From positions 4,906-68,905 of the forward strand of contig JAZDFE010000002.1 of the NCBI GenBank assembly GCA_043808175.1: a DNA stretch of 64,000 bases. Direction: 5' to 3'. Each line of letters opens with the position of its first letter. The first letter of the stretch is position 1. The notes under the pieces were generated by a model, which saw only the letters and a list, made by a program, of their open reading frames with translations, was not told the DNA's origin and ran no database searches. A program made the position numbers and the translations under genes. This stretch comes from Candidatus Omnitrophota bacterium. Lineage in GTDB: Bacteria > Omnitrophota > Omnitrophia > Omnitrophales > Aquincolibacteriaceae. Positions 1,937 through 38,407 of the stretch are shown here, in pieces.

Positions 1937-4900
1937 TTAGTTTTCTTTCCGGGACGAGCCGGCGCGAGTAAGCTCGAATTTATCGAGCACCTTTTCCTGG
2001 AAAGCTTGCATATAGAGAAAAAGCCCTGGCGTTACAAAGAGCGTTACCACCTGAGAAAAGACGAGCCCGCCGACCACGACCAGCCCGAGGGGGACCCTGG
2101 AAGAACCGTCCGCGCCATATCCGAGCGCGATCGGCAAAGCGCCCATGATCGCCGCGAGTCCCGTCATGAGGATCGGCCGGAAGCGCACAACGCTCGCGTC
2201 GTGGATCGCGTCAAAGTTGTTCTTCCCTTCGGCAAGGCCCTGATTGGCAAAGTCCACCATCATGATACCGTTCTTGGCCACAATGCCAAGCAGCATAAAG
2301 ATCCCGACATAAGCATAAAGGGACATCTCGGAGTGGAAGATCCAAAGCGTGGCAAGGCCGCCGAGCGTCCCGACCGGAAGCGTTGTGATGATCGTGAATG
2401 GATGCACATAACTTTCATAGAGAATACCGAGGATCACATATTTAATAAGAATCGCGATTAGGATCAGGAGGGTAAGACTCGCGATAGCGTCCGAAAATTC
2501 CTCCGCTTCGCCCTGCAGTTTCCCGGTAACCTCGGCCGGAAGAAGTTTCTCAGCCGTTTGTTCGATAAATTTCGTCGCATCTCCGAGAGGGACCCCCTCC
2601 TTGAGGTTGAACGAGATCGTCCCGGAATTCAGCTGCGAGTCATGCGGCACATTTTGCGGGGTCACCACTTCGGTCCATTCTAAGACAGAGCTTAGGGGCA
2701 CCATCTTTCCCGTGGCGCTTGCCCGGACATAGACGCGGGAAAGATCTTCCGGAACTTTCTGGTACTCCTTTTCGAGTTCTACGATCACCTGGTATTGATC
2801 GATCTGGGTTTTATAAAGCGTCACTTTGCCTTGGGCATAAGCCAGCGACAAGGCGTATTCGATATCCTGCGCCGTGATCCCTAAGGTCGACGCCCGGTCC
2901 CTTAAGATCGTGGCCTTCAAGGTCGGCAAGGTCAGTTTGACGCTGTTCTGAACGTCCACAAATCCGGGATGTGCCCGAAGCTCTTTTTCAAGCTGCATCG
3001 CGCTCTCATAAACTTTCCCCTGGTCTGCGCCGCGGATCGTGTAGGAATATTTGCTCCCCGAAGCGGTGCTTTCGCCGCCGGTGCTGATCTGAAGGGAGGG
3101 CGTTGCTTTAAGGAACGCGAATCCTCCGGCGATCTTTGCCAGCTTGCCGCGGATCTCCGCCAGGGCCTTGGCCATCGGGAGGCGCTTCCCGGAAGGCTTG
3201 AGCACAATATGGATGAACCCGGTGCTCTGGTCGGAGCCGGTCTGAAGTCCGGAAGCGGTCAGCGTCCGTTCAATATTGGGGTCCGCTTCAAGCACATGGT
3301 TCACTTGGGCTTGGTACTGGCGAGCCTGTTTTGTCGAGGTCCCGAGAGGCATCAATGTACCCCCCATGATCGCGCCGCTGTCGCCGTCCGGAAGAAATGT
3401 TTGAGGCAGCACATTGAAAAAGTATACGGTCCCGCCCAGACAAGCCACCCACAGAACGATCGTAATGAATGGCCGCAGCAGGATCTTTTTGAGAAGAATG
3501 CTGTATCCTCCGATCACTTTGTCCATGAACGGATTCATGATCCTCTGGACCCAGTTCTCTTTTTCTTTTCCCTCCTCCTTGGCCTTCAACATGCGCGCGC
3601 ACATCATCGGCGTGAGCGTAAGCGACACCACACCGGAACAAAGGATCGTCACGACCACCGTGATCGCAAATTCCCTGAAGATCCTTCCGACAACACCCCC
3701 CATGAATACCAGTGGAATAAAAATGACCGCTAAGGAAAGCGTCATGGAAAGGATCGTAAAACTGATTTCTTGAGCGCTCTTGATCGCGGCCGGAAACGGT
3801 TTCATGCCTTGTTCGATCAGACGCACCGTGTTTTCAAGCACCACGATCCCGTCATCCACGACGAACCCGACCGCAAGAATGATTCCCATAAGCGACAGGT
3901 TGTCCAAACTGAAATGGAGGGCCTTCATGACAAGGAACGAGGCAATGATGGAAACCGGCAACGTCATCGCGGGAATAACCGTGTCTGATAAACGCCCGAG
4001 GAAAAGAAAAATGACAAGAATGACCAGCACGAGCGCGATCAGGATTGTGTTCTTCACATCGTCGATGGACGCGATGATCGATTCGGATTTGTCGTAGTAA
4101 ACGGACAACTGGACCGAACCCGGGATCTCACGCTTCAGCTCTTCAACCGTTTGTTTGATCCGCTCGGCAAGACCCACCGTATTCGATCCCACCTGACGGA
4201 AAACAGGAAGCACGGCCACGCCGGCATGCAGCTTCTCGCCCGGCCGCGTCGTCGCCATCACATTCACAACGTCACTTTCGGTGCTGTTCACGCAAGTCGC
4301 GATATCCCGCAGCCGGATAGGAGCGCCGTTCCGGTAGGCCACGATCAGTGACTCATACTCCTTGGCGTCGATCATCTGCCCTTGAGGCTGGATCGAAAAA
4401 GTCCGCGCGTTTCCGTTCAAACTCCCTCCGGGGACCGTCACTGTTCCCGTTTGAACAGCCGCGGCAATATCATTCAACCCGATCCCATAGGCGGCCAGCT
4501 TGGCGGGATCCACCTGGACACGGATCGCGGATTGTGATCCGTAGACCTGAACCTGCGAAACGCCTTCGATCATGGAGATCCGCTGGCCGATCGTCCGGTT
4601 CGCATAATCATAAAGCTGGCCGGGGGTCAGACTGTCAGAAGTCACCATCAGATACATGATCGGTGTGTCGGAGGGGTTCGTTTTTGTATAAGTGGGCGGC
4701 GCCGGAAGATCTGTCGGCAGATTCGCCTGCGCGCGCGAAATAGCGGCCTGTACGTCCGGCGCCGCGAGGTCAATACTCCGGTCCAGATCAAACGTGAGCA
4801 TGATCTGAGTTTGACTGTCCGTGTTGGTGGAAATGATCGATTTGAGCCCCGGGATCTGCATGAACTGGCTTTCAAGGGGCGATGCCACCGTCGAGGCCAT

Positions 4901-5074
4901 GGTGTCCGGACTCGCGCCGGGATAAGCCACCGTCACCGTGATCACGGGAGAATCCACCACGGGAAGATCGCTGATGGGAAGACTGAAAAATGCGGCAACA
5001 CCAAAAAGCAGGACGAGCACCATGAGCAGCGTCGTCATGATCGGTTTTTTTATGAAGCTTTCCGTAAAACTCAT
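1937..5074 (-). CDS. RND (AcrB/HAE1-type) efflux transporter permease
   Basis: 1045-aa ORF with 12-TM RND layout and two large periplasmic loops. Conserved TM4 region GFVVDDGIVVLEN. Third gene of an OMF-MFP-RND operon. Confidence 0.93.
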   Translation of the reverse strand: MSFTESFIKKPIMTTLLMVLVLLFGVAAFFSLPISDLPVVDSPVITVTVAYPGASPDTMASTVASPLESQFMQIPGLKSIISTNTDSQTQIMLTFDLDRSIDLAAPDVQAAISRAQANLPTDLPAPPTYTKTNPSDTPIMYLMVTSDSLTPGQLYDYANRTIGQRISMIEGVSQVQVYGSQSAIRVQVDPAKLAAYGIGLNDIAAAVQTGTVTVPGGSLNGNARTFSIQPQGQMIDAKEYESLIVAYRNGAPIRLRDIATCVNSTESDVVNVMATTRPGEKLHAGVAVLPVFRQVGSNTVGLAERIKQTVEELKREIPGSVQLSVYYDKSESIIASIDDVKNTILIALVLVILVIFLFLGRLSDTVIPAMTLPVSIIASFLVMKALHFSLDNLSLMGIILAVGFVVDDGIVVLENTVRLIEQGMKPFPAAIKSAQEISFTILSMTLSLAVIFIPLVFMGGVVGRIFREFAITVVVTILCSGVVSLTLTPMMCARMLKAKEEGKEKENWVQRIMNPFMDKVIGGYSILLKKILLRPFITIVLWVACLGGTVYFFNVLPQTFLPDGDSGAIMGGTLMPLGTSTKQARQYQAQVNHVLEADPNIERTLTASGLQTGSDQSTGFIHIVLKPSGKRLPMAKALAEIRGKLAKIAGGFAFLKATPSLQISTGGESTASGSKYSYTIRGADQGKVYESAMQLEKELRAHPGFVDVQNSVKLTLPTLKATILRDRASTLGITAQDIEYALSLAYAQGKVTLYKTQIDQYQVIVELEKEYQKVPEDLSRVYVRASATGKMVPLSSVLEWTEVVTPQNVPHDSQLNSGTISFNLKEGVPLGDATKFIEQTAEKLLPAEVTGKLQGEAEEFSDAIASLTLLILIAILIKYVILGILYESYVHPFTIITTLPVGTLGGLATLWIFHSEMSLYAYVGIFMLLGIVAKNGIMMVDFANQGLAEGKNNFDAIHDASVVRFRPILMTGLAAIMGALPIALGYGADGSSRVPLGLVVVGGLVFSQVVTLFVTPGLFLYMQAFQEKVLDKFELTRAGSSRKEN

Positions 5075-5088
5075 CGTTTATCCTTTTC

Positions 5089-5143
5089 GAACCACGCTCC
5101 ACGATCCATGCACCACGTGGCCCGTGGCACGTGGAACGTGGAA
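5089..5143. repeat. GC-rich heptad palindrome (CCACG/CGTGG family)
   Basis: gaaCCACGctCCACGatCCATGcaCCACGTGGccCGTGGcaCGTGGaaCGTGGaa, centred on CACGTG. Lies between the MFP stop and the RND start. Confidence 0.85.
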
Positions 5144-5149
5144 TACATA

Positions 5150-6301
5150 CTATTGATGCGCATTGCCCACCGCATGTTGCCCTTGAAGATCGGGCTGTAC
5201 ATCTTTGACGGGCACGCCGGAACTCAATCCCATTTGCCCGCTGGTGACTACCTTCTCGCCCGCCTTGACGCCATTTTCAACCACAATGTCGTCTCCCTGC
5301 CGGCTGCCGGTCCTGAGGATCCTGAGATCCGCTTTACCCTCCGGCGTTACGACAAAGGCAAAAGTTCCCTTTTGTCCCAACTGCGCAGCCGCGTACGGGA
5401 TCAGCACGGCACCCTTCTGGATCCCGAGGATTAGTTTCACATAAACGAATTGACCCGCCCACAAAGCATTATCTTCGTTGGGAACAATCGCCCTGAGAGA
5501 AATGGTCCCTGTTGTGTTGTCGATCGCATTCTCGATCAGTTTTAATTCTCCGGCATAGGACTTCCCGTCGTCCGGGACCCGGACTTCCGCTTTCAAAACA
5601 CCCGCGGCCATCGCGCTGCGGATCGCTTGAAGTTGCCGGTCCGTCACCGTGAAATCCACATAGAGCGTATCGATCGCCTTGACATTGGCAAGCGTCGGAC
5701 CGTTATTGGCCAGCACGATGTTCCCAGGGTCCACAAGAACTTTCCCGGTCACTCCATTCACAGGAGACTTGATGGAGCAATAATCCAGATTGATCTCGGC
5801 CAACACTAGTTCGGCCTTATCGAGAGTGGTCTTCGCTTCCGCCGCCTCAACATCCGTTTCATATTTCTCGAAATCCTGCTGGGACACAAGCTCTTTACTG
5901 GCAAGCCCGCGGTTCCGCTCCAGCGTATCCTTTTTCATTTTCATGTCGACGTTGTCCGCCTGCACGACCGCCTGGGCTTTGTCAACCGCGGCTTTATATT
6001 CCGAAGGATCTATGGTGAAAAGAAGATCCCCTGCCGCGACCCTTTGCCCTTGCTTAAAGTGTGCCTGAAGGACCTTGCCCGTGACTTGGGACTTGATGTC
6101 CACGTTGACAAGCGCCGCTAAATTCCCAAAAGCCTCGATATAGGAAGGGACATCCTTTTGGAGAGCGACGGAAGTTTGAACCGGCCGGGGCGGCATGGGG
6201 GGGATTTCCTTTTTCCCGGAGCATCCATTCCCCAGGATCAAGAAGAATACCGCGAAAACCCAACTCATTAGAACAGGAAACTTCGAAGGAAATGATCGCA
6301 T
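5150..6301 (-). CDS. RND efflux periplasmic adaptor (membrane fusion protein, HlyD/AcrA family)
   Basis: ORF 5150-6370 trimmed to the ATG at 6301, which has an upstream AGGAG. Lipoprotein-like N-terminus ...FFLILGNGC. Alpha-hairpin and beta-barrel regions typical of MFPs. Confidence 0.88.
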   Translation of the reverse strand: MRSFPSKFPVLMSWVFAVFFLILGNGCSGKKEIPPMPPRPVQTSVALQKDVPSYIEAFGNLAALVNVDIKSQVTGKVLQAHFKQGQRVAAGDLLFTIDPSEYKAAVDKAQAVVQADNVDMKMKKDTLERNRGLASKELVSQQDFEKYETDVEAAEAKTTLDKAELVLAEINLDYCSIKSPVNGVTGKVLVDPGNIVLANNGPTLANVKAIDTLYVDFTVTDRQLQAIRSAMAAGVLKAEVRVPDDGKSYAGELKLIENAIDNTTGTISLRAIVPNEDNALWAGQFVYVKLILGIQKGAVLIPYAAAQLGQKGTFAFVVTPEGKADLRILRTGSRQGDDIVVENGVKAGEKVVTSGQMGLSSGVPVKDVQPDLQGQHAVGNAHQ

Positions 6302-6332
6302 TTTTTTGTTTCTCCTATCTTCTGGCGCTGAT

Positions 6333-7820
6333 TTAAAGCTCGATCGTGCCCTTCTCGGCCCGGGCAGCATCCGTTCTCTCGTTGATCGTGCCGGTTGCGT
6401 AGGCTACCTGGGCAAAGCTGGTATAAAGCTCTTTCCGCGAATTGATCACCTGGCTCCGGGCGTCCGAAAGGTCCGATTCGGCGTTTAGAACGTCCAGGAT
6501 GCTTTTCAGTCCGGTCTTGTAACCATCCATGGAAAGATCATATGAACCTTGCGAGGCATCCAGATAAGCCTTGCTGGCCTCGAGCTTCTGGGTCGCCGTA
6601 ACGAAGTTGTAATAGGCATCCCAAACATCCGCCGTGACGCTCAGCTCCTTCTGCCGCAAATTCTCAAATTCGGCGTCGGCATCGGCTTTGGCGGCTTTGA
6701 TCTTGGAAACCGTGTCAAACCCCTCGAAAAGGGGCCAATTGACGCTCACGCCGGCCGTATAGCCGTAATTATGCTGAGTGTCATAATTCAGACCATGCCG
6801 GCCAAAATATTTGTACCAATCGTTCGATCCTGATCCTTGAGCATTCAGGGTCGGCCATAGATCCGACCGGGCGGCTGTGATCGCGGCGATCTTCGCGGCA
6901 AGACTGGCGCGTTCCGCCGCAAGATCGGGGCGTTTCGCCAGACCTTCTTCGATCAATTGGCCCACTTCTCTTGTCCCCACCTTGAATTCCACGTCTTTTT
7001 GCGGAAGCATGATATTGAGCGGCGTCCCCGCGGGAAAACCGAGGACTTTCGCGAGATCTCCTTCGGCCGTCTTGAGATTCCCCTTGGCGGATTCCAATCC
7101 AAACAAAGTTTTCTGATAACTTGCGGTGGCCTGAAGCACATCCACCTTCGCCTGGATCCCGGCTGAAAATCTCTCATTGGTCGCATCGAGCGCCGCCTTG
7201 GCGTCTTTGACGTCCATGTGGGCGGCCTCAAGCAATGCGGTCGTGCTGAAAAAATTAAAGTAAGCGGACGTCACATTGAGCAGGAGATTCTGGAAAGTCT
7301 GGTTGAATTGGAAGTTAGTCGCAAGCAACGTTTGAAAGGCCTGTTCCACTTTGGCGCTCCGGCCTCCAAAATCAACCAGCAGATAGGTCAATTTCATGTT
7401 AGCGCCGATGTCTCCTTGATTCAGACTTTGAAGGGGGCGGTTGGAAACCGTATGCTGGGTGTCAAAATCCTGCTCCACGGTCGCCGTGGGGTACCAGGCG
7501 CTCTGCGCTTCCCCGACTCGAGCTTTGGCCGAAAGGGCCTGGTACCATGCCTGTTTGGTCGAGGGATTGTTCTGCAAGGCGAGCCCGACCAATTCGATAA
7601 GCTTCATGGGTTTTTCGACGCTCGGTTTTCTTCCCTCTACGCCCGCGAGAACCGTTTCCGGCTTCTTGGATTGGGCATACCACTGAGGGGGCGTCCACAT
7701 ACTTGAAGATTCTTTGGGAACTTCCAGGGTCCGGCAGCCTGCAAAAAAGATCAGAAACAAAGAGAGGAGCGCGAAGAGCGGAAAAGAAGCGTGGAGTTTA
7801 TTCGTTTTAAGCATCGGCAA
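6333..7820 (-). CDS. outer-membrane efflux protein (TolC/OEP family)
   Basis: 495 aa with signal/lipobox LIFFAGC. Duplicated OEP repeat structure. First gene of the efflux operon. Confidence 0.88.
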   Translation of the reverse strand: MPMLKTNKLHASFPLFALLSLFLIFFAGCRTLEVPKESSSMWTPPQWYAQSKKPETVLAGVEGRKPSVEKPMKLIELVGLALQNNPSTKQAWYQALSAKARVGEAQSAWYPTATVEQDFDTQHTVSNRPLQSLNQGDIGANMKLTYLLVDFGGRSAKVEQAFQTLLATNFQFNQTFQNLLLNVTSAYFNFFSTTALLEAAHMDVKDAKAALDATNERFSAGIQAKVDVLQATASYQKTLFGLESAKGNLKTAEGDLAKVLGFPAGTPLNIMLPQKDVEFKVGTREVGQLIEEGLAKRPDLAAERASLAAKIAAITAARSDLWPTLNAQGSGSNDWYKYFGRHGLNYDTQHNYGYTAGVSVNWPLFEGFDTVSKIKAAKADADAEFENLRQKELSVTADVWDAYYNFVTATQKLEASKAYLDASQGSYDLSMDGYKTGLKSILDVLNAESDLSDARSQVINSRKELYTSFAQVAYATGTINERTDAARAEKGTIEL

Positions 7821-20137: not shown

Positions 20138-20668
20138 TTATCCGTGGATCGTGGTACGTGTCCCCGGAATTTCTCGGTAGATCTCAAGGTCCTGTTCTGA
20201 AAATAGAACGAAGATCACTTTTTCAAGGGACTCCGGATCTTCCTCCAGGAACCTCCGGACCGTTCCCACGGCAATCGCGGCGGCCTTCCGGATGGGAAAC
20301 CTGTAGGCCCCGGTCGAAATGGAGGGGAACGCGATCGTTTTCAAGTGATGGGTTTGAGCGCATTTTAAGGAGTTCCTGTAACAGGAGGCCAAAAGTGCTT
20401 CCTCTTGAGACTTTCCTCCGTGCCACACAGGGCCTACGGTATGAATGACAAAACGCGCCGGAAGCTCGTACCCCTTCGTGATCTTGGCCTGCCCCGTCTC
20501 GCAGCTACCCAGGCCTTTGCATGCTTCGAGAAGCGCCGGACCGGCGGCCCGGTGGATCGCGCCATCGACTCCCCCGCCGCCGAGCAGGGTCCGGTTGGCC
20601 GCGTTCACGATCGCATCGCAGCTGAGACGGGTAATATCGCCATGGATGAGTTCGATCGCAGTCTTCAT
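20138..20668 (-). CDS. macro-domain protein (O-acetyl-ADP-ribose deacetylase, YmdB-like)
   Basis: [43 protein letters not shown]. The last ~10 codons ([11 protein letters not shown]) are encoded by a heptad-repeat half element at 20143-20172. Confidence 0.88.
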
Positions 20669-20785: not shown

Positions 20786-20849
20786 CCGTCCCGAGTCCCG
20801 GCGGTTCGTGGCTCGTGGCCCGTGTCCCGATGCCGTACACGTCACACCC
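20786..20849. repeat. GC-rich heptad repeat block (CGTGG/CGTGTCC units)
   Basis: gtcccgagtcccggcggttCGTGGctCGTGGccCGTGTCCcgatgccgtacacgtcacaccc. Positions 20805-20946 are 141/142 identical to 23776-23917. Confidence 0.85.
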
Positions 20850-20850
20850 A

Positions 20851-21110
20851 AGAAATGACGCCTGATTCTCCTATTAAGTTTTATAAAGAATCAGTGCAGC
20901 ACCGACTTTCAATTAACTGCTCTTATCGACAGTCGGTACGGCATCGCCTGGTTTCATTTAAGAGATGATTGAGAACCAGTGCTGTCCTGGCCTCCGATTA
21001 ATTTTTCAATAATAGCCAGGGCGTACTTGCACACAGGTACAAGTGCCGAGATGCTTGATATCGTTCTGAGCTCGTCTTTTTTGCTAGGCTGTCCGTAGGA
21101 CGCCTATTTT
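20851..21110. repeat. hairpin-module array (AT-loop family), five or more modules
   Basis: CTGATTCT..AGAATCAGtgcagc; ACCGACT..AGTCGGTacggc; CTGGTT..AACCAGtgctgtc; CTGGC..GCCAGggcgtac; ACTTGCACacagGTACAAGT; ends ...ggctgtccgtaggacgcc. Confidence 0.8.
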
Positions 21111-23727: not shown

Positions 23728-23820
23728 CCCCGTGTCCCTTGTCCCTGGAGTTATCGTGTCCCGTGTCCCCGGAATTTCGTGGCTCGTGGCCCGTGTCCCG
23801 ATGCCGTACACGTCACACCC
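23728..23820. repeat. GC-rich heptad repeat block
   Basis: CGTGTCCcttgtccctggagttatCGTGTCCCGTGTCCccggaatttCGTGGctCGTGGccCGTGTCC... Its right part is shared with 20805-20849. Confidence 0.85.
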
Positions 23821-23829
23821 AAGAAGTGA

Positions 23830-24106
23830 CGCCTGATTCTCCTATTAAGTTTTATAAAGAATCAGTGCAGCACCGACTTTCAATTAACTGCTCTTATCGA
23901 CAGTCGGTACGGCATCGTACTTGTTCACCGGCGCAAGTGCGGTCAGAGTACGAAGCTGATATTATGCTCCGACTCTGCCGTCCCAATACTTATCAATTTC
24001 TGCAAAGCAGAAATTGGGGCGGTCTTGGTTACCGTTGATCAAAAGAAAATTAAAACCAGGGCCGTACTTGTACACAGGTACAAGTGCCTACGGTACCGGT
24101 ACCGAT
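23830..24106. repeat. hairpin-module array (AT-loop family)
   Basis: The first two modules are identical to 20862-20942. Then come ACTTG..CAAGT, CAGAGT..ACTCTGccgtc, CCCAATACTTATCAATTTCTGC..GCAGAAATTGGGG, TGGTT..AACCAgggccgtac, ACTTGTACacagGTACAAGT and GGTACCGGTACC. Confidence 0.8.
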
Positions 24107-24126
24107 CTATTTTCATTTCAGCCTCC

Positions 24127-25564: not shown

Positions 25565-25660
25565 TTTTCCCTCCTTTTTCTTCGGTTTGAAACGACTCAT
25601 AGTCGGTTGAGAAAAAACACGGAAAAGACAAGTCCGGCCGTGTCCCGACGGTTCGTGGCT

Positions 25661-25775
25661 CGTGGCACGTGTCCCCGGAATTATTGTGTCCCGTGGTACG
25701 TGTCCCCGGAATTATTGTGTCCCGTGGCACGTGTCCCCGGAATTATTGTGTCCCATGGCTCGTGGCACGTGTCCC
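25661..25775. repeat. 3.5 tandem copies of a 31-nt unit (GC-rich heptad family variant)
   Basis: CGTGGCACGTGTCCCCGGAATTATTGTGTCC at 25661, 25692 (one substitution) and 25723, then a partial copy. The copies are contiguous with no spacers. Confidence 0.9.
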
Positions 25776-25780
25776 TGATT

Positions 25781-26152
25781 TTAGATCCGTTCTACGCTCA
25801 CGTGATCGCCGTCACGGACGGCGCCGAGAAGCGCTTTGAAATCGCCTTCGAGCTCCCCGAGGATGTTGCACCGGTCGGCAAGCCGGCATTCCGTACCTTT
25901 CGAGATGGGCGTGCGCCCGTAGGGCAATGCCAGACAGTTCCCCTGCGTCCAAAAACAAACCGTGCCGGGAACCACCACCTGATGGGCGTCCGCTTCAAGC
26001 GCCGCGCTCACGGGGACCTGAAAATAGACCTCGTTCCCCCACGTCTGCGCCGACGACGTCATAGGAAGCGCCGCGAGGATCTTGCCGGCTGTCGCCGTCT
26101 CCTTCAGCGTCGCAAAAATTTCAACTTCCCCGATTTTAATTTTAATTTGCAT
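25781..26152 (-). CDS. cyclophilin-like fold protein (small, function unknown)
   Basis: Trimmed to the ATG at 26152 (MQIKIKIGEVEIFATLKETATAGKILAALP...WGNEVYF...). The pattern matches the cyclophilin-like small-protein family. Confidence 0.65.
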   Translation of the reverse strand: MQIKIKIGEVEIFATLKETATAGKILAALPMTSSAQTWGNEVYFQVPVSAALEADAHQVVVPGTVCFWTQGNCLALPYGRTPISKGTECRLADRCNILGELEGDFKALLGAVRDGDHVSVERI

Positions 26153-26186
26153 CTTCTTTCCTTTTTCCGTTATCTGTTTCACTTTT

Positions 26187-27302: not shown

Positions 27303-27339
27303 GGGATACCCCGAATGAAACTCGAAAGGTACCGTTCAA

Positions 27340-27372
27340 CGAGTCCCGAGTCCCGAGTCCCGTGTCCCCTGT
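27340..27372. repeat. heptamer tandem CGAGTCC x3 + CGTGTCC
   Basis: CGAGTCCCGAGTCCCGAGTCCCGTGTCCcctg, immediately 3' of the metallopeptidase gene. The same junction occurs at 31872-31892. Confidence 0.85.
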
Positions 27373-27377
27373 TTTTG

Positions 27378-27755
27378 TCAGTAGGTCCCGTCTTTGATCA
27401 TGTGTTCATCCGAGATCCCGAAATAGTGCGCGAACTCATGAAGAACGGTATCCCGGACCGCCTTCCGAATCTCCCGCCGGCTGCGGCAGGACCGCGTGAG
27501 AGGCCCCCGGAAGACCGTGATCTTGTCCGGGAGAACGCTCCCGTCGTGGTGTGTCCTCTCCCCGAGCGGCACGCCTTCGTAAAGTCCCAGCAGGTCTTCT
27601 CCGGCCCCGGTCTCCTTTTTTTGACGGGCCGATGGCTCCTCCAGGATCACGATATTGATGTTCTCGAGCTTGCGCTTGAACTCCCGGGGAAGACTTTTCA
27701 CCGCGTCCCGGACCAATGCCTCGAATTCCCGCGTCGTCAAAAATCTTTTTTCCAT
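27378..27755 (-). CDS. small zincin-like metallopeptidase family protein (copy 1)
   Basis: 125 aa with C-terminal HEFAHYFG (HExxH). Nearly identical to 31899-32250. Confidence 0.75.
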   Translation of the reverse strand: MEKRFLTTREFEALVRDAVKSLPREFKRKLENINIVILEEPSARQKKETGAGEDLLGLYEGVPLGERTHHDGSVLPDKITVFRGPLTRSCRSRREIRKAVRDTVLHEFAHYFGISDEHMIKDGTY

Positions 27756-27765
27756 TTCAGAACCT

Positions 27766-27835
27766 TACCGGCCGTTGCCGTCTCCTTCAGCGTCGCAAAA
27801 ATCTCGATCTTCCCGATCTTAATTCTGATCTTCAT
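27766..27835 (-). pseudogene. 5' fragment of a cyclophilin-like gene
   Basis: MKIRIKIGKIEIFATLKETATAG, equivalent to the first ~23 codons of 25781-26152, then unrelated sequence. Confidence 0.6.
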
Positions 27836-27914
27836 CCTCTTTCGTTCTCCGTGACTCATTTCACGTTCTTTGTTAATGAAGTGATGTGTCCCCTGATTTG
27901 TGTTTATTGGTTCC

Positions 27915-29497: not shown

Positions 29498-29644
29498 GAA
29501 AAAGCCGCGCTTAAATGGCGCGGCTTTGTGGAGATAGATCTCCCGGCGCTTTAGCACATTTCCCGTCCCGCAGGACGGTGCTCGCCCACATGGGGTCAAG
29601 CTTTAGCGGAGCAAGTAACCTCTTTAAATCACCGCTTCTTCTAT
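29498..29644 (-). ncRNA. candidate ~150-nt sRNA, copy 1
   Basis: Conserved promoter (29651-29679), several hairpins (CCGTCC-tgcg-GGACGG; GGAGA-tcta-TCTCC; a 10-bp helix with a G-U that is valid only on the minus strand) and the intrinsic terminator GCCGCGC-catttaa-GCGCGGC-TTTTT. About 95 percent identical to 31563-31709. Confidence 0.5.
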
Positions 29645-29650
29645 ATAAGA

Positions 29651-29679
29651 ACTGTAGCTGACCTATCGCGTTTTGACAA
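29651..29679 (-). promoter_or_regulatory. sigma70-like promoter of sRNA candidate copy 1
   Basis: The minus strand reads TTGTCA-17 nt-TACAGT. Both hexamers are conserved in copy 2 while the 17-nt spacer sequence differs. Confidence 0.5.
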
Positions 29680-29715
29680 GAAAGCGAGACCTAGCAAGAA
29701 CTAACAGGAGCCGGG

Positions 29716-29775
29716 GTCATTCATTTCCAACCATTCTTCAATGAACCCGGCACTTAGGGTACCGGCACCGATCCA
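29716..29775. repeat. hairpin module (AT-loop family)
   Basis: CCGGGGTCattcatttccaaccattcttcaatGAACCCGG followed by GGTACCGGCACC. Related module at 30447-30488. Confidence 0.6.
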
Positions 29776-30446: not shown

Positions 30447-30732
30447 GGCCGGGATCATTCATTTTCATCCATGCTTTAATGGACCCGGCTCGATACCGCA
30501 CGCACTGAACGACCCATAAAGCTTAAATGAAGTTTAGTGCTGTCCCAATCAACCCTTAAAATTAATGGGAGGATTGGGACGCGACCTACCTTAAAAAGCG
30601 GCGGTATCGCCTGGTTTCATTTAAGAGATGATTGAGAACCAGTGCTGTCCTGGCCTCCGATTAATTTTCCAATGATAGCCAGGGCGTACTTGTACACAGG
30701 CACAAGTGCTTGGGGTACCGGTACCGGTCCGG
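30447..30732. repeat. hairpin-module array (AT-loop family)
   Basis: CCGGGATC..GGACCCGG; CACTGAAC..GTTTAGTGctgtc (G-T pair valid on the + strand reading); CCCAATC..GATTGGGacgcgac. After that, 30606-30709 is about 95 percent identical to 20943-21046. Ends with GGTACCGGTACCGG. Confidence 0.8.
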
Positions 30733-31562: not shown

Positions 31563-31709
31563 GAAAAAGCCGCGCGATTGAGCGCGGCTTTTCTGGAGAT
31601 AGATCTCCCGGCGCTTTAGCACATTTCCCGTCCCGCAGGACGGTGCTCGCCCACATGGGGTCGGGCTTTAGCGGAGCAAGTAACCTCTTTAAATCACCGC
31701 TTCTTCTAT
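31563..31709 (-). ncRNA. candidate ~150-nt sRNA, copy 2
   Basis: Same hairpins and terminator (GCCGCGC-tcaatc-GCGCGGC-TTTTT) as copy 1. The promoter is at 31716-31744. Confidence 0.5.
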
Positions 31710-31715
31710 AAAAGA

Positions 31716-31744
31716 ACTGTAGCCGGCCTTTTACGTTTTGACAA
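31716..31744 (-). promoter_or_regulatory. sigma70-like promoter of sRNA candidate copy 2
   Basis: The minus strand reads TTGTCA-17 nt-TACAGT, with a spacer sequence different from copy 1. Confidence 0.5.
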
Positions 31745-31847
31745 GAAAGCGAGACCTAGCAAGAACTAACAGGAGCCGAGGTCAACTCCCCCAGCGCCGC
31801 GAAAACCTCGATTTTCCCGATCTTGATTTTAATCTTCATTTTCTTTC

Positions 31848-31892
31848 GCTCCACGCTCCACGTTCCACGAATCCCGAGTCCCGTGTCCCCTG
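31848..31892. repeat. GC-rich heptad repeat block
   Basis: gctCCACGctCCACGttCCACGaatcCCGAGTCCCGTGTCCcctg. Confidence 0.8.
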
Positions 31893-31898
31893 TTTTTG

Positions 31899-32282
31899 TC
31901 AGTAGGTCCCGTCTTTGATCATGTGTTCATCCGAGATCCCGAAATAATGCGCGAACTCATGAAGAACGGTATCCCGGACCGCCTTCCGCATCTCCCGCCG
32001 GCTGCGGCAGGACCGCATGAGAGGCCCCCGGAAGACCGTGATCTTGTCCGGGAGAACGCTCCCGTCGTGGTGCGTCCTCTCCCCGAGCGGCACGCCTTCG
32101 TAAAGCCCCAGCAGGTCTTCTCCGGCCCCGGTCTCCTTTTTTTGACGGGCCGATGGCTCCTCCAGGATCACGATATTGATGTTCGCGAGCTTGCGCTTGA
32201 ACTCCCGGGGAAGACTTTTCACCGCGTCCCGGACCAGCGCCTCGAATTCCCCGATCTTAATTTTGATCTTCATCGGATTCAA
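31899..32282 (-). CDS. small zincin-like metallopeptidase family protein (copy 2, chimeric N-terminus)
   Basis: Identical to copy 1 from EFEALVRDAVK... to HEFAHYFG...GTY, apart from a few substitutions. The N-terminus MNPMKIKIKIG derives from a cyclophilin-like gene start, joined by an ~82-bp deletion relative to copy 1. Confidence 0.7.
   Translation of the reverse strand: MNPMKIKIKIGEFEALVRDAVKSLPREFKRKLANINIVILEEPSARQKKETGAGEDLLGLYEGVPLGERTHHDGSVLPDKITVFRGPLMRSCRSRREMRKAVRDTVLHEFAHYFGISDEHMIKDGTY

Positions 32283-38330: not shown

Positions 38331-38407
<77 letters not shown>

Follow-up and report, generated by a model that had tools for sequence, protein, structure and literature searches.

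Two copies of a promoter-to-terminator RNA unit of probable SAM-II/SAM-V class in a toxin-antitoxin island of a Candidatus Omnitrophota bacterium

Results

A noncoding unit is duplicated in a toxin-antitoxin island

A 64-kb stretch of contig JAZDFE010000002.1 from a Candidatus Omnitrophota bacterium (the window, by which we mean this whole stretch) contains an island of toxin-antitoxin (TA) genes in which a minus-strand unit is duplicated as a direct repeat, with copy A at 29499-29718 and copy B at 31564-31783. We found that the RNA encoded by this unit very probably belongs to the SAM-II/SAM-V class of S-adenosylmethionine (SAM) riboswitches and is homologous to a family whose short form is found in leaders of metK, the gene for S-AdoMet synthetase. 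The genes around the two copies encode Gp49-family toxins with helix-turn-helix (HTH) or HI1420-type antitoxins, HNH nucleases, duplicated zincins, and a 200-amino-acid (aa), secreted-looking protein with a signal peptide and no Pfam match. A 5′ fragment of a cyclophilin-like gene lies directly upstream of copy B (31775-31869), and the same junction occurs at two related loci (L035 and L051). An earlier sequence-only reading of this DNA, which had proposed a small RNA (sRNA) gene of no known family, described the TA genes, the secreted-protein gene, and the cyclophilin-like fragment as we find them.

The two copies are 95% identical over 195 ungapped nucleotides (29525-29719 and 31590-31784) and 93% identical over 227 nt when gaps are allowed, in agreement with the roughly 95% originally estimated. 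Searches of the window with blastn, nhmmer, and a two-block pattern expected to match zero times by chance revealed no third copy. Each copy consists of a TTGTCA-17-TACAGT promoter, a structured RNA of ~146 nt, and a terminator whose GC-rich 10-bp stem is followed by a U-tract, as follows (all on the minus strand).

29680-29718, minus: copy A, conserved block 5′ of the -35 hexamer, GACCCCGGCTCCTGTTAGTTCTTGCTAGGTCTCGCTTTC; near-identical in copy B and in L003/L004, L051, and L035
29651-29679, minus: copy A, promoter from a consensus scan; TTGTCA at 29674-29679, 17-nt spacer, TACAGT at 29651-29656
~29644, minus: copy A, transcription start predicted from the promoter position
29605-29636, minus: copy A, 5′ half of the aptamer; P1 5′ strand AGCGG at 29632-29636, P1 3′ strand CCGCU at 29605-29609
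29610-29631, minus: copy A, loop L1, UGAUUUAAAGAGGUUACUUGCU; U-rich third strand, turn with the GG(U) of P2a, UUGC of P2
29563-29601, minus: copy A, linker insert; hairpin H2 at 29580-29601 (8 bp, bulged A), hairpin H3 at 29563-29578 (6 bp, loop UGCG)
29545-29562, minus: copy A, 3′ half of the aptamer; A-rich GAAAU, P2 3′ strand GUGC-U-AAA with a bulged U, P2a 3′ strand (G)CGCC
29530-29543, minus: copy A, hairpin H4, GGAGA-UCUA-UCUCC, between aptamer and terminator; forms in the minimum-energy fold
29499-29527, minus: copy A, terminator AAAGCCGCGC-CAUUUAA-GCGCGGCUUU then UU; 10 pairs, 7 of them G-C, in the scan
31745-31783, minus: copy B, conserved block 5′ of the -35 hexamer; matches the copy A block
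31716-31744, minus: copy B, promoter from a consensus scan; TTGTCA at 31739-31744, 17-nt spacer, TACAGT at 31716-31721
~31709, minus: copy B, transcription start predicted from the promoter position
31670-31701, minus: copy B, 5′ half of the aptamer (P1 5′ strand, L1, P1 3′ strand); identical in sequence to copy A
31628-31666, minus: copy B, linker insert; H2 at 31645-31666, H3 at 31628-31643
31610-31627, minus: copy B, 3′ half of the aptamer (A-rich linker, GUGC-U-AAA, CGCC); same elements as copy A
31595-31608, minus: copy B, hairpin H4, from the fold
31564-31592, minus: copy B, terminator AAAAGCCGCGC-UCAAUC-GCGCGGCUUUUU; grazed by Rfam terminator-containing models

Much of the anatomy first proposed for this unit is borne out. 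The promoter is present in both copies (29679-29651 and 31744-31716), each copy ends in a strong intrinsic terminator with a 10-bp GC-rich stem followed by U5, GCTAAAGC occurs twice in each copy, and the helices AGCGG...CCGCT, CCGTCC-tgcg-GGACGG, GGAGA-tcta-TCTCC, and H2 could all be located. H2 had been described as a 10-bp helix; the helix exists but is shorter, with 8 bp and a bulged A in copy A and 7 bp in copy B, where a UU-to-CC change relative to copy A yields one C·A mismatch and one C-G pair. The internal ATG open reading frame (ORF), previously counted as 24 codons, is 26 codons long in copy A, against 52 codons in copy B, and is not conserved. Fold energies compared with shuffled sequences gave z = -3.15 for the minus strand and a weaker z = -1.97 for the plus strand. 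A search for tandem repeats within the unit found none. The overall picture of a duplicated, noncoding, ~150-nt structured minus-strand RNA with its own promoter and terminator is further backed by relatives in unrelated contexts.

The promoter scored 9/12 in copy A in the consensus scan. Its spacers (aaacgcgataggtcagc and aaacgtaaaaggccggc) are identical at 12/17 positions, and spacer sequence is kept in distant relatives too (AAACGYRAWAGGYCRGC). The spacers had been called completely different between the copies, with conserved hexamers around a free spacer taken as a sign of selection; that argument fails as stated because the spacer itself is conserved. Among Omnitrophota relatives the promoter, spacer included, is conserved between unrelated flanks, and at the other end conservation stops abruptly at the U-tract. 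Substitutions between copies A and B and among orthologues affect the promoter spacer, H2, H4, and the terminator loops, sparing the aptamer core. In relatives the terminator stem is conserved and its loop variable, and H4 is found only in the closest relatives (it is not conserved in L001, L037, or L056). The block upstream of the -35 hexamer is absent from L001, L037, L045, L053, and L056 and could be an operator or UP-like region.

The unit belongs to a family of about 45 loci

We searched metagenomes with a 22-mer from the RNA, viral contigs with a 16-mer from the first conserved block, and species-representative genomes with a two-block pattern, which together gave a family of ~45 loci (4 from metagenomes, 38 true genome loci, and 3 from viral contigs). 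The 22-mer matched four metagenome contigs (L001 to L004); L003 and L004 are ~92% identical to copy A, promoter included, and L001 and L002 ~72%. Two blocks, GGTTACTTGCTCCGCT and GCGGGACGGGAAATGTGCTAAAGCGCCGG, are invariant across these contigs and the window copies, and GGTTACTTGCTCCGCT and AAATGTGCTAAAG occur in the same order in every family member. Among the viral-contig matches to the 16-mer, 15/18 were unrelated coding sequence. One viral-collection contig (L021) carries two copies of a shorter RNA with both blocks and without the ~45 nt between them; L011 and L012 derive from another contig whose sequence is the same. The two-block pattern matched 43 genome loci, 38 of them true (L028, L043, L047, L059, and L064 were rejected as false). 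About 33 are short forms of 60 nt, mainly from metagenome-assembled genomes (MAGs) of Syntrophaceae, Smithella, and other Syntrophales, with a few from Omnitrophota (L025, L027, L053, and L063). The remaining five (L035, L037, L045, L051, and L056) are long forms, from Omnitrophota where labelled. A hidden Markov model built from Syntrophales short forms only matched both window copies with E = 3.9e-10.

The window shares mosaic blocks of 85-94% nucleotide identity with the Omnitrophota MAGs PLLJ01 (L051/L053) and JBDRCT01 (L035) and with L004. Orthologous units in at least five other genomes, at 72-93% identity, keep the invariant core and show compensatory changes in the stems (U-G to C-G in P1; U-A, U-G, or C-G in H2; U-G to U-A in P2a), and in all of them the promoter and terminator are intact. 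A BLAST search of the unit against phage and plasmid collections gave nothing useful, long exact patterns run against viral contigs and genomes and a third viral pattern gave no matches, and an exact-sequence look-up of two neighbouring proteins returned no record.

The conserved core has the strand order of SAM-II/SAM-V aptamers

In SAM-II and SAM-V aptamers, P1 is followed by a third strand that lies in P2's major groove, a turn, and the descending strand of P2 running into the descending strand of P1 (PMC6061858). Next come, in SAM-V only, a P3 hairpin, then A-minor adenines and the ascending strand of P2 with a bulged U; in SAM-V, U47 pairs with the adenine of SAM, and A48-A50 hold the sulfonium and the amino-acid end (PMC6061858). 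The window RNA reads AGCGG, UGAUUU, AAAGAGGUUA, CUUGC(U), CCGCU, H2 and H3, GAAAU, GUGC-U-AAA-G, CGCC, which is the order of elements in the SAM-V crystal-structure description (PMC6061858).

The P1 helix AGCGG/CCGCU encloses a 22-nt loop, and the UUGC of this loop is complementary to the GC-AA of GUGCUAAAG, forming P2; the two pair in 36/36 family sequences. Across these 36 sequences, 99.7% of P1 and P2 cells are paired, versus 33-57% for slid controls, and P1 shows two compensatory changes. P2a complementarity, of 2-5 bp, holds in 18/18 aptamers, drawn from this type and the neighbouring tandem type, with covariation (GGU/GCC, GGU/ACC, GGC/GCC, GGGU/ACCC, and GGUU/AACC). The GC-U-AAA-G segment, with its bulged U and three adenines, is the same throughout the 36 sequences and in the two window copies. 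It is preceded by an A-rich linker before GUGCUAAAG, which is AUAUAAAU in short forms and (G)GAAAU in long forms. After AGCGG both window copies have UGAUUU, and relatives, including metK-associated ones, have GAUUU, GAGUU, or AAUUU; this third strand is compatible with formation of U:A·U triples with the A-U pairs of P2.

The gene context of the short forms points to the same class. At 10 or more distinct loci a short form precedes an S-AdoMet synthetase gene by 100-120 nt (the genes are of two types, both PF00438). One of the two L021 copies lies directly upstream of such a gene; two other short-form loci lie upstream of DUF2061 genes. In L052, three aptamer-terminator units stand in tandem, of which the first is a family member. 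The second (2629-2704) scored 36.4 bits against the SAM_alpha model, whose threshold is 36, and is the only aptamer to reach it; it is ~80% identical both to the first unit and to the window core after in silico removal of the insert.

Several results weigh against the assignment. The best Rfam match of the short forms is SAM_alpha (RF00521) at only 18.7-22.2 bits versus the threshold of 36 (21 bits for the shorter RNA of L021), SAM-II long-loop (RF01726) matched L029 only, at 23.3 bits versus 44, and SAM-V (RF01826) matched nowhere, the window copies included, so that no family member reached the gathering threshold of any of the three models. Rfam scans of the window copies themselves, a check that had been suggested with the original proposal, returned only tRNA-Met and terminator look-alikes at gathering and at permissive (E ≤ 10) settings, and no SAM-class match. 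P2 is invariant and shows no covariation, and its bases were fixed by the search pattern. Among the genes neighbouring either window copy or the other Omnitrophota members, none is related to SAM or methionine. The claim that the unit matches no known family thus holds at Rfam thresholds and fails at the level of structural class, and because the RNA core matches the SAM-II/SAM-V class, the claim to novelty largely falls. We conclude that class membership is very probable and that the ligand is likely to be SAM.

On L021, the viral-collection contig of Syntrophaceae, the S-AdoMet synthetase gene is flanked by two short-form units (1186-2689; also L024 and L060), one in the synthetase leader and one after the gene, ahead of a 270-aa gene without assigned function. 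The large ORF at 4756-6777 resembles a terminase large subunit by eye. The arrangement may represent a phage-carried, SAM-regulated metK.

Predicted attenuation in relatives and possible attenuation in the window copies

In four short forms (L026, L030, L054, and L063), the minimum-energy fold has the free 3′ tail GUGCUAAAG paired with the loop and 3′ strand of the terminator as an antiterminator, and the terminator forms in silico only once the tail is held unpaired. This is, as modeled, a classic OFF-switch design. The complementarity between tail and terminator extends to 10 bp in L026, L045, and L063. In the window, GCUAAAG is complementary to the terminator loop at 6-7/7 positions by eye in copy A, as in L004, and poorly so in copy B.

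At least 15 loci carry a second, more canonical SAM-II-like aptamer 70-200 nt past the first unit. Among these loci are the long forms L002, L037, and L045 and the short form L025, where the second aptamer follows after 84-133 nt; in L002 and L045 it lies just before a conserved 221-aa gene. Such units therefore probably lie in 5′ leaders and must sometimes be read through. A search downstream of the window copies found no second SAM-II-like aptamer.

Tandem SAM-II-like aptamers are frequent in these lineages and were recorded at L052 (2474-2829, three of them), L023, L025, L026, L030, L031, L033, L039, L042, L054, and L065. Each tandem aptamer is followed by a separate terminator in the loci that were read, L045 and L052, and several lie ahead of a conserved small protein (MAIKVTFLTVVTR...) for which Pfam gave no match. 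The 221-aa protein (L002, 9060-9725; L045, 1-175) is cysteine rich (…KYPEIASI(L/I)RN…ELDPWLPFPQ…), lacks a Pfam match, and in two different genomes stands behind a long form plus second aptamer. L037 has the same two RNA elements on a contig that ends before the gene would be reached. This gene is the only recurrent downstream gene of the long form.

The reading of the window units that we prefer, though with evenly divided confidence, is that they are SAM-responsive attenuators that release a ~146-nt RNA and, at low SAM, let some transcription through into the TA operons. Binding of SAM would lock the tail in the pseudoknot and transcription would stop at the terminator, releasing the ~146-nt RNA; with little SAM, some polymerases would continue into the downstream Gp49-toxin/antitoxin operons. 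The evidence from the window itself runs the other way at several points. In the window copies and promoter-sharing relatives the terminator is part of the minimum-energy fold whether the tail is free or held, and the free tail of the window copies forms a small GUGC-UAAA-GCRC hairpin instead. No antiterminator appeared in folds of the window copies, L003, L035, L037, L045, L027, L053, or L025. From the terminators it is 210-260 nt to the starts of the next genes, which encode Gp49 toxins and have better promoter matches of their own (31472-31445, at 11/12, and 29316-29288). In three related genomes, the same upstream junction of cyclophilin fragment and unit is followed by different genes (a TA pair, a GNAT gene, and a histidine kinase gene). 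The downstream gene is co-oriented with the unit wherever this could be called; upstream genes are too, which makes the orientation uninformative.

A close second to the attenuator is a free-standing small-RNA gene, in which an aptamer derived from the SAM-II/SAM-V class is joined to a constitutive terminator and the ~146-nt RNA is itself the product; SAM, if binding is retained, would alter the RNA's conformation so that it works in trans on mRNAs or proteins, or would stabilize it. We regard this as possible, though on the unlikely side. It would account for the lack of a predicted antiterminator in the window subgroup, for downstream operons with their own promoters, and for the variation in downstream genes at orthologous junctions. 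Promoter (with its spacer) and terminator travel as one module in at least 10 unrelated contexts, next to TA, DUF2092, GNAT, histidine kinase, LexA-like, and ClpX-like genes; the limit of conservation at the U-tract is sharp; and the unit occurs twice within 2 kb here and twice on one contig of a related genome (L051/L053). In Sinorhizobium meliloti, SAM-II riboswitches give rise to the sRNAs RZ and RA1/RA2 (PMC9373788). However, an own promoter and a sharp 3′ boundary are common to every riboswitch unit and do not discriminate, and the next downstream gene is co-oriented wherever callable. Moreover, the permanently terminated fold is weak evidence against regulation, because L025, L037, and L045 share that prediction yet precede a second aptamer (in L045 just before the gene) and are probably leaders that are read through. 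For the window copies, we hold it an even question whether the output is regulated read-through rather than a free-standing RNA.

The long-form insert is a pair of conserved hairpins

An insert of 43-51 nt separates the P1 3′ strand from the A-rich stretch in the window copies and in their relatives from Omnitrophota, at the position of the 3-bp P3 hairpin of SAM-V; short forms lack this insert. Each of the nine distinct long-form inserts folds into a pair of adjacent 6-9-bp hairpins; the sequences differ, and the energy z-scores are -1.6 to -6.0. H2 is GCUUG-A-CCC/GGG-CGAGC in one lineage and UCCG-CCAC/GUGG-U-CGGA in another, H3 is CCGUCC/GGACGG, CCUGCCGG/CCGGCAGG, or others, and most positions of both hairpins show several pair types (counted from per-sequence folds, since MAFFT misaligned H2 and H3 in long forms). 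Because the hairpins persist while their sequences diverge, and fold below shuffled controls, the insert is, on this comparative evidence, a selected structural module rather than junk. Two loci (L027 and L053) combine the Omnitrophota promoter and terminator with a short form lacking the insert, and the insert is therefore an add-on to a working scaffold.

An RNAalifold consensus of five sequences drew a long-range rod joining both invariant blocks, which we rejected because the short forms keep both blocks without the intervening hairpins and because H2 and H3 covary as local hairpins. The blocks correspond to the strands of the pseudoknot, and a predictor of nested structures cannot draw one.

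The two extra hairpins could in principle be a new binding surface with which the long variant senses another ligand or a protein. The insert is structurally conserved and hence under selection, long forms stand beside genes with no relation to SAM metabolism, and SAM-I variants that sense spermidine provide a precedent (PMC10853860). We nevertheless consider this improbable and do not favor an altered ligand, because the pocket residues are identical to those of metK-associated members: the core (GAUUU, CUUGC, GC-U-AAA, and the A-rich linker) is that of the metK-associated short forms. In addition, the same promoter and terminator also accompany some short forms, which have no insert, and SAM-V tolerates a peripheral hairpin at this very site, outside the ligand pocket (PMC6061858).

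Passenger and unrelated-RNA explanations

It is quite improbable that the units are nonfunctional passengers, vestiges of riboswitch leaders that were duplicated together with cassettes of an island prone to recombination and persist only because the duplication is recent. This explanation would accommodate the mosaic makeup of the island, in which other intergenic repeats and gene fragments are numerous, the lack of a cognate gene nearby, and, in copy B, the C·A mismatch in H2 and the poor complementarity between tail and terminator. Simple decay is unlikely, however, because the orthologues described above retain the core and compensate their stems, with promoter and terminator intact throughout.

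The original proposal of an unrelated family of base-pairing sRNAs that regulate toxin mRNAs agrees with the promoter-to-terminator anatomy, the TA neighborhood, and the lack of an Rfam match at threshold, but we find it unsupported and very improbable given the homology to metK-leader elements, the threshold-passing SAM_alpha match, the location of most relatives away from TA genes, and conserved single-stranded blocks that are exactly the SAM-II/SAM-V pseudoknot strands.

Other candidates were dropped. The unit has no tandem repeats and the neighboring toxins are type II (Gp49 with an HTH antitoxin), which speaks against a type III antitoxin RNA; a retron, tracrRNA, omega-RNA, or bridge RNA was set aside with no reverse transcriptase, Cas, TnpB, or IS110 gene among the neighbors; the unit is not the single imperfect palindrome of an integron attC; and the 3′ untranslated region of a duplicated gene is contradicted by differing upstream genes and the unit's own conserved promoter.

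Other repeats in the island

The cyclophilin-like gene (25781-26182, PF04126) has its first ~10-30 codons and upstream bases repeated three more times in the same orientation, with starts on the minus strand at 26076-26163, 27759-27846, 31763-31850, and 32241-32274. Each fragment lies at a cassette junction, and one is fused in frame to the zincin gene at 31899-32282. The arrangement looks like the outcome of successive insertions at the gene's 5′ end or of recombination through it. A 300-nt duplication at 96% identity (27333-27632 and 31854-32153) covers most of a zincin-like metallopeptidase gene (PF06262) and flanks both RNA units.

Two instances, 86% identical, were seen of an imperfect palindrome of 42 nt, GCCGGG-TCATTCATT...AATGA-CCCGGC; one instance (29710-29751) abuts the 5′ edge of copy A and the other (30448-30489) lies upstream of the secreted-protein gene. 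Further intergenic repeats lie at 20797-21066, 23768-23917, 24060-24107, and 30602-30729, with pairs of 150 nt at 97% (20797/23768) and 108 nt at 95% (20939/30602) and a 48-nt element in three copies that contains TTGTACACAGG-ACAAGTGC and GGTACCGGTACCG. These could be other regulatory or RNA modules moving with cassettes. A ~31-nt unit, GTGTCCCGTGGNACGTGTCCCCGGAATTATT, is repeated three times in tandem at 25655-25764 and recurs between genes at 20144, 21750, 23725, and 24850, and GTGTCCC motifs related to it lie just beyond both RNA units (~29483 and ~31885). A tRNA-Met gene (CAT, 38331-38407), ~6.5 kb from the RNA units and just past an ABC-2 transporter pair, may mark the edge of the variable region.

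Discussion

SAM-II riboswitches commonly use terminator-based expression platforms. The window RNA resembles SAM-II (SAM_alpha, RF00521) in its H-type pseudoknot order, in a P1 loop that holds GAUUU and CUUGC, and in a 3′ GCUAAA(G) followed by the P2a partner; it differs in having two linker hairpins where SAM-II has none. Known SAM_alpha elements occur in Rhizobiales and Rhodobacterales upstream of metY, metA, and metX (PMC4239095), whereas the present family is found upstream of metK in Syntrophales, and in Omnitrophota. SAM-V (RF01826) shares the ligand-pocket architecture and has its P3 hairpin exactly where H2 and H3 sit (PMC6061858). SAM-V, however, has a single 3-bp P3, acts on translation through a Shine-Dalgarno sequence in P2a, and belongs to marine bacteria of the Pelagibacter type; the window form combines a terminator with two hairpins of 6-9 bp. 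The SAM-II long-loop element (RF01726) is an enlarged-loop relative of SAM-II with no match in the window, and here the enlargement takes the form of two discrete linker hairpins.

Arrangements in series and riboswitch-derived RNAs also have counterparts. Listeria SreA and SreB are small RNAs made from SAM-I riboswitches, and SreA acts in trans. The Pelagibacter SAM-II/SAM-V tandem likewise places two aptamers of this clan in one leader (PMC11508383); the present family has at least 15 tandem loci, with a terminator of its own for each aptamer in L045 and L052, and the window copies have no second aptamer. As in the S. meliloti RZ and RA1/RA2 RNAs, where termination at a SAM-II riboswitch frees a discrete, stable small RNA (PMC9373788), the window units would release a short transcript. 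The S. meliloti and Listeria RNAs derive from leaders of methionine or SAM genes, however, and the window units have no such gene downstream.

Within one open-access library, we found no full text linking SAM-II or other relevant riboswitches to Omnitrophota (Omnitrophica), and none describing the long variant or its gene context. Three things appear to be new: a subfamily missed by current models, which spans Syntrophales metK leaders, a viral-collection metK contig, and Omnitrophota; its two-hairpin long form; and a portable promoter-aptamer-terminator module beside genes unrelated to SAM. What might have been entered as a new sRNA family is replaced by a ~100-nt aptamer with a predicted ligand. 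A sizeable branch of the SAM-II/SAM-V class is invisible to the Rfam models, so riboswitch counts and regulons are incomplete in these lineages.

Omnitrophota are very small, possibly host-dependent bacteria. If the window-type RNAs bind SAM, their neighbors (TA, LexA-like, ClpX-like, and kinase genes) would represent an unusually broad, nonmetabolic use of a SAM sensor. More speculatively, and in our view doubtfully, a SAM-II/SAM-V aptamer may have been freed from methionine and SAM genes to become a portable promoter-aptamer-terminator module that reports SAM to unrelated cassettes or serves as a ligand-responsive small RNA, here coupling SAM depletion to expression of Gp49-type TA genes. 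If so, defense or dormancy genes would be under a metabolite-sensing trigger, set off when SAM is depleted, for example through starvation or through SAM-degrading enzymes of phages.

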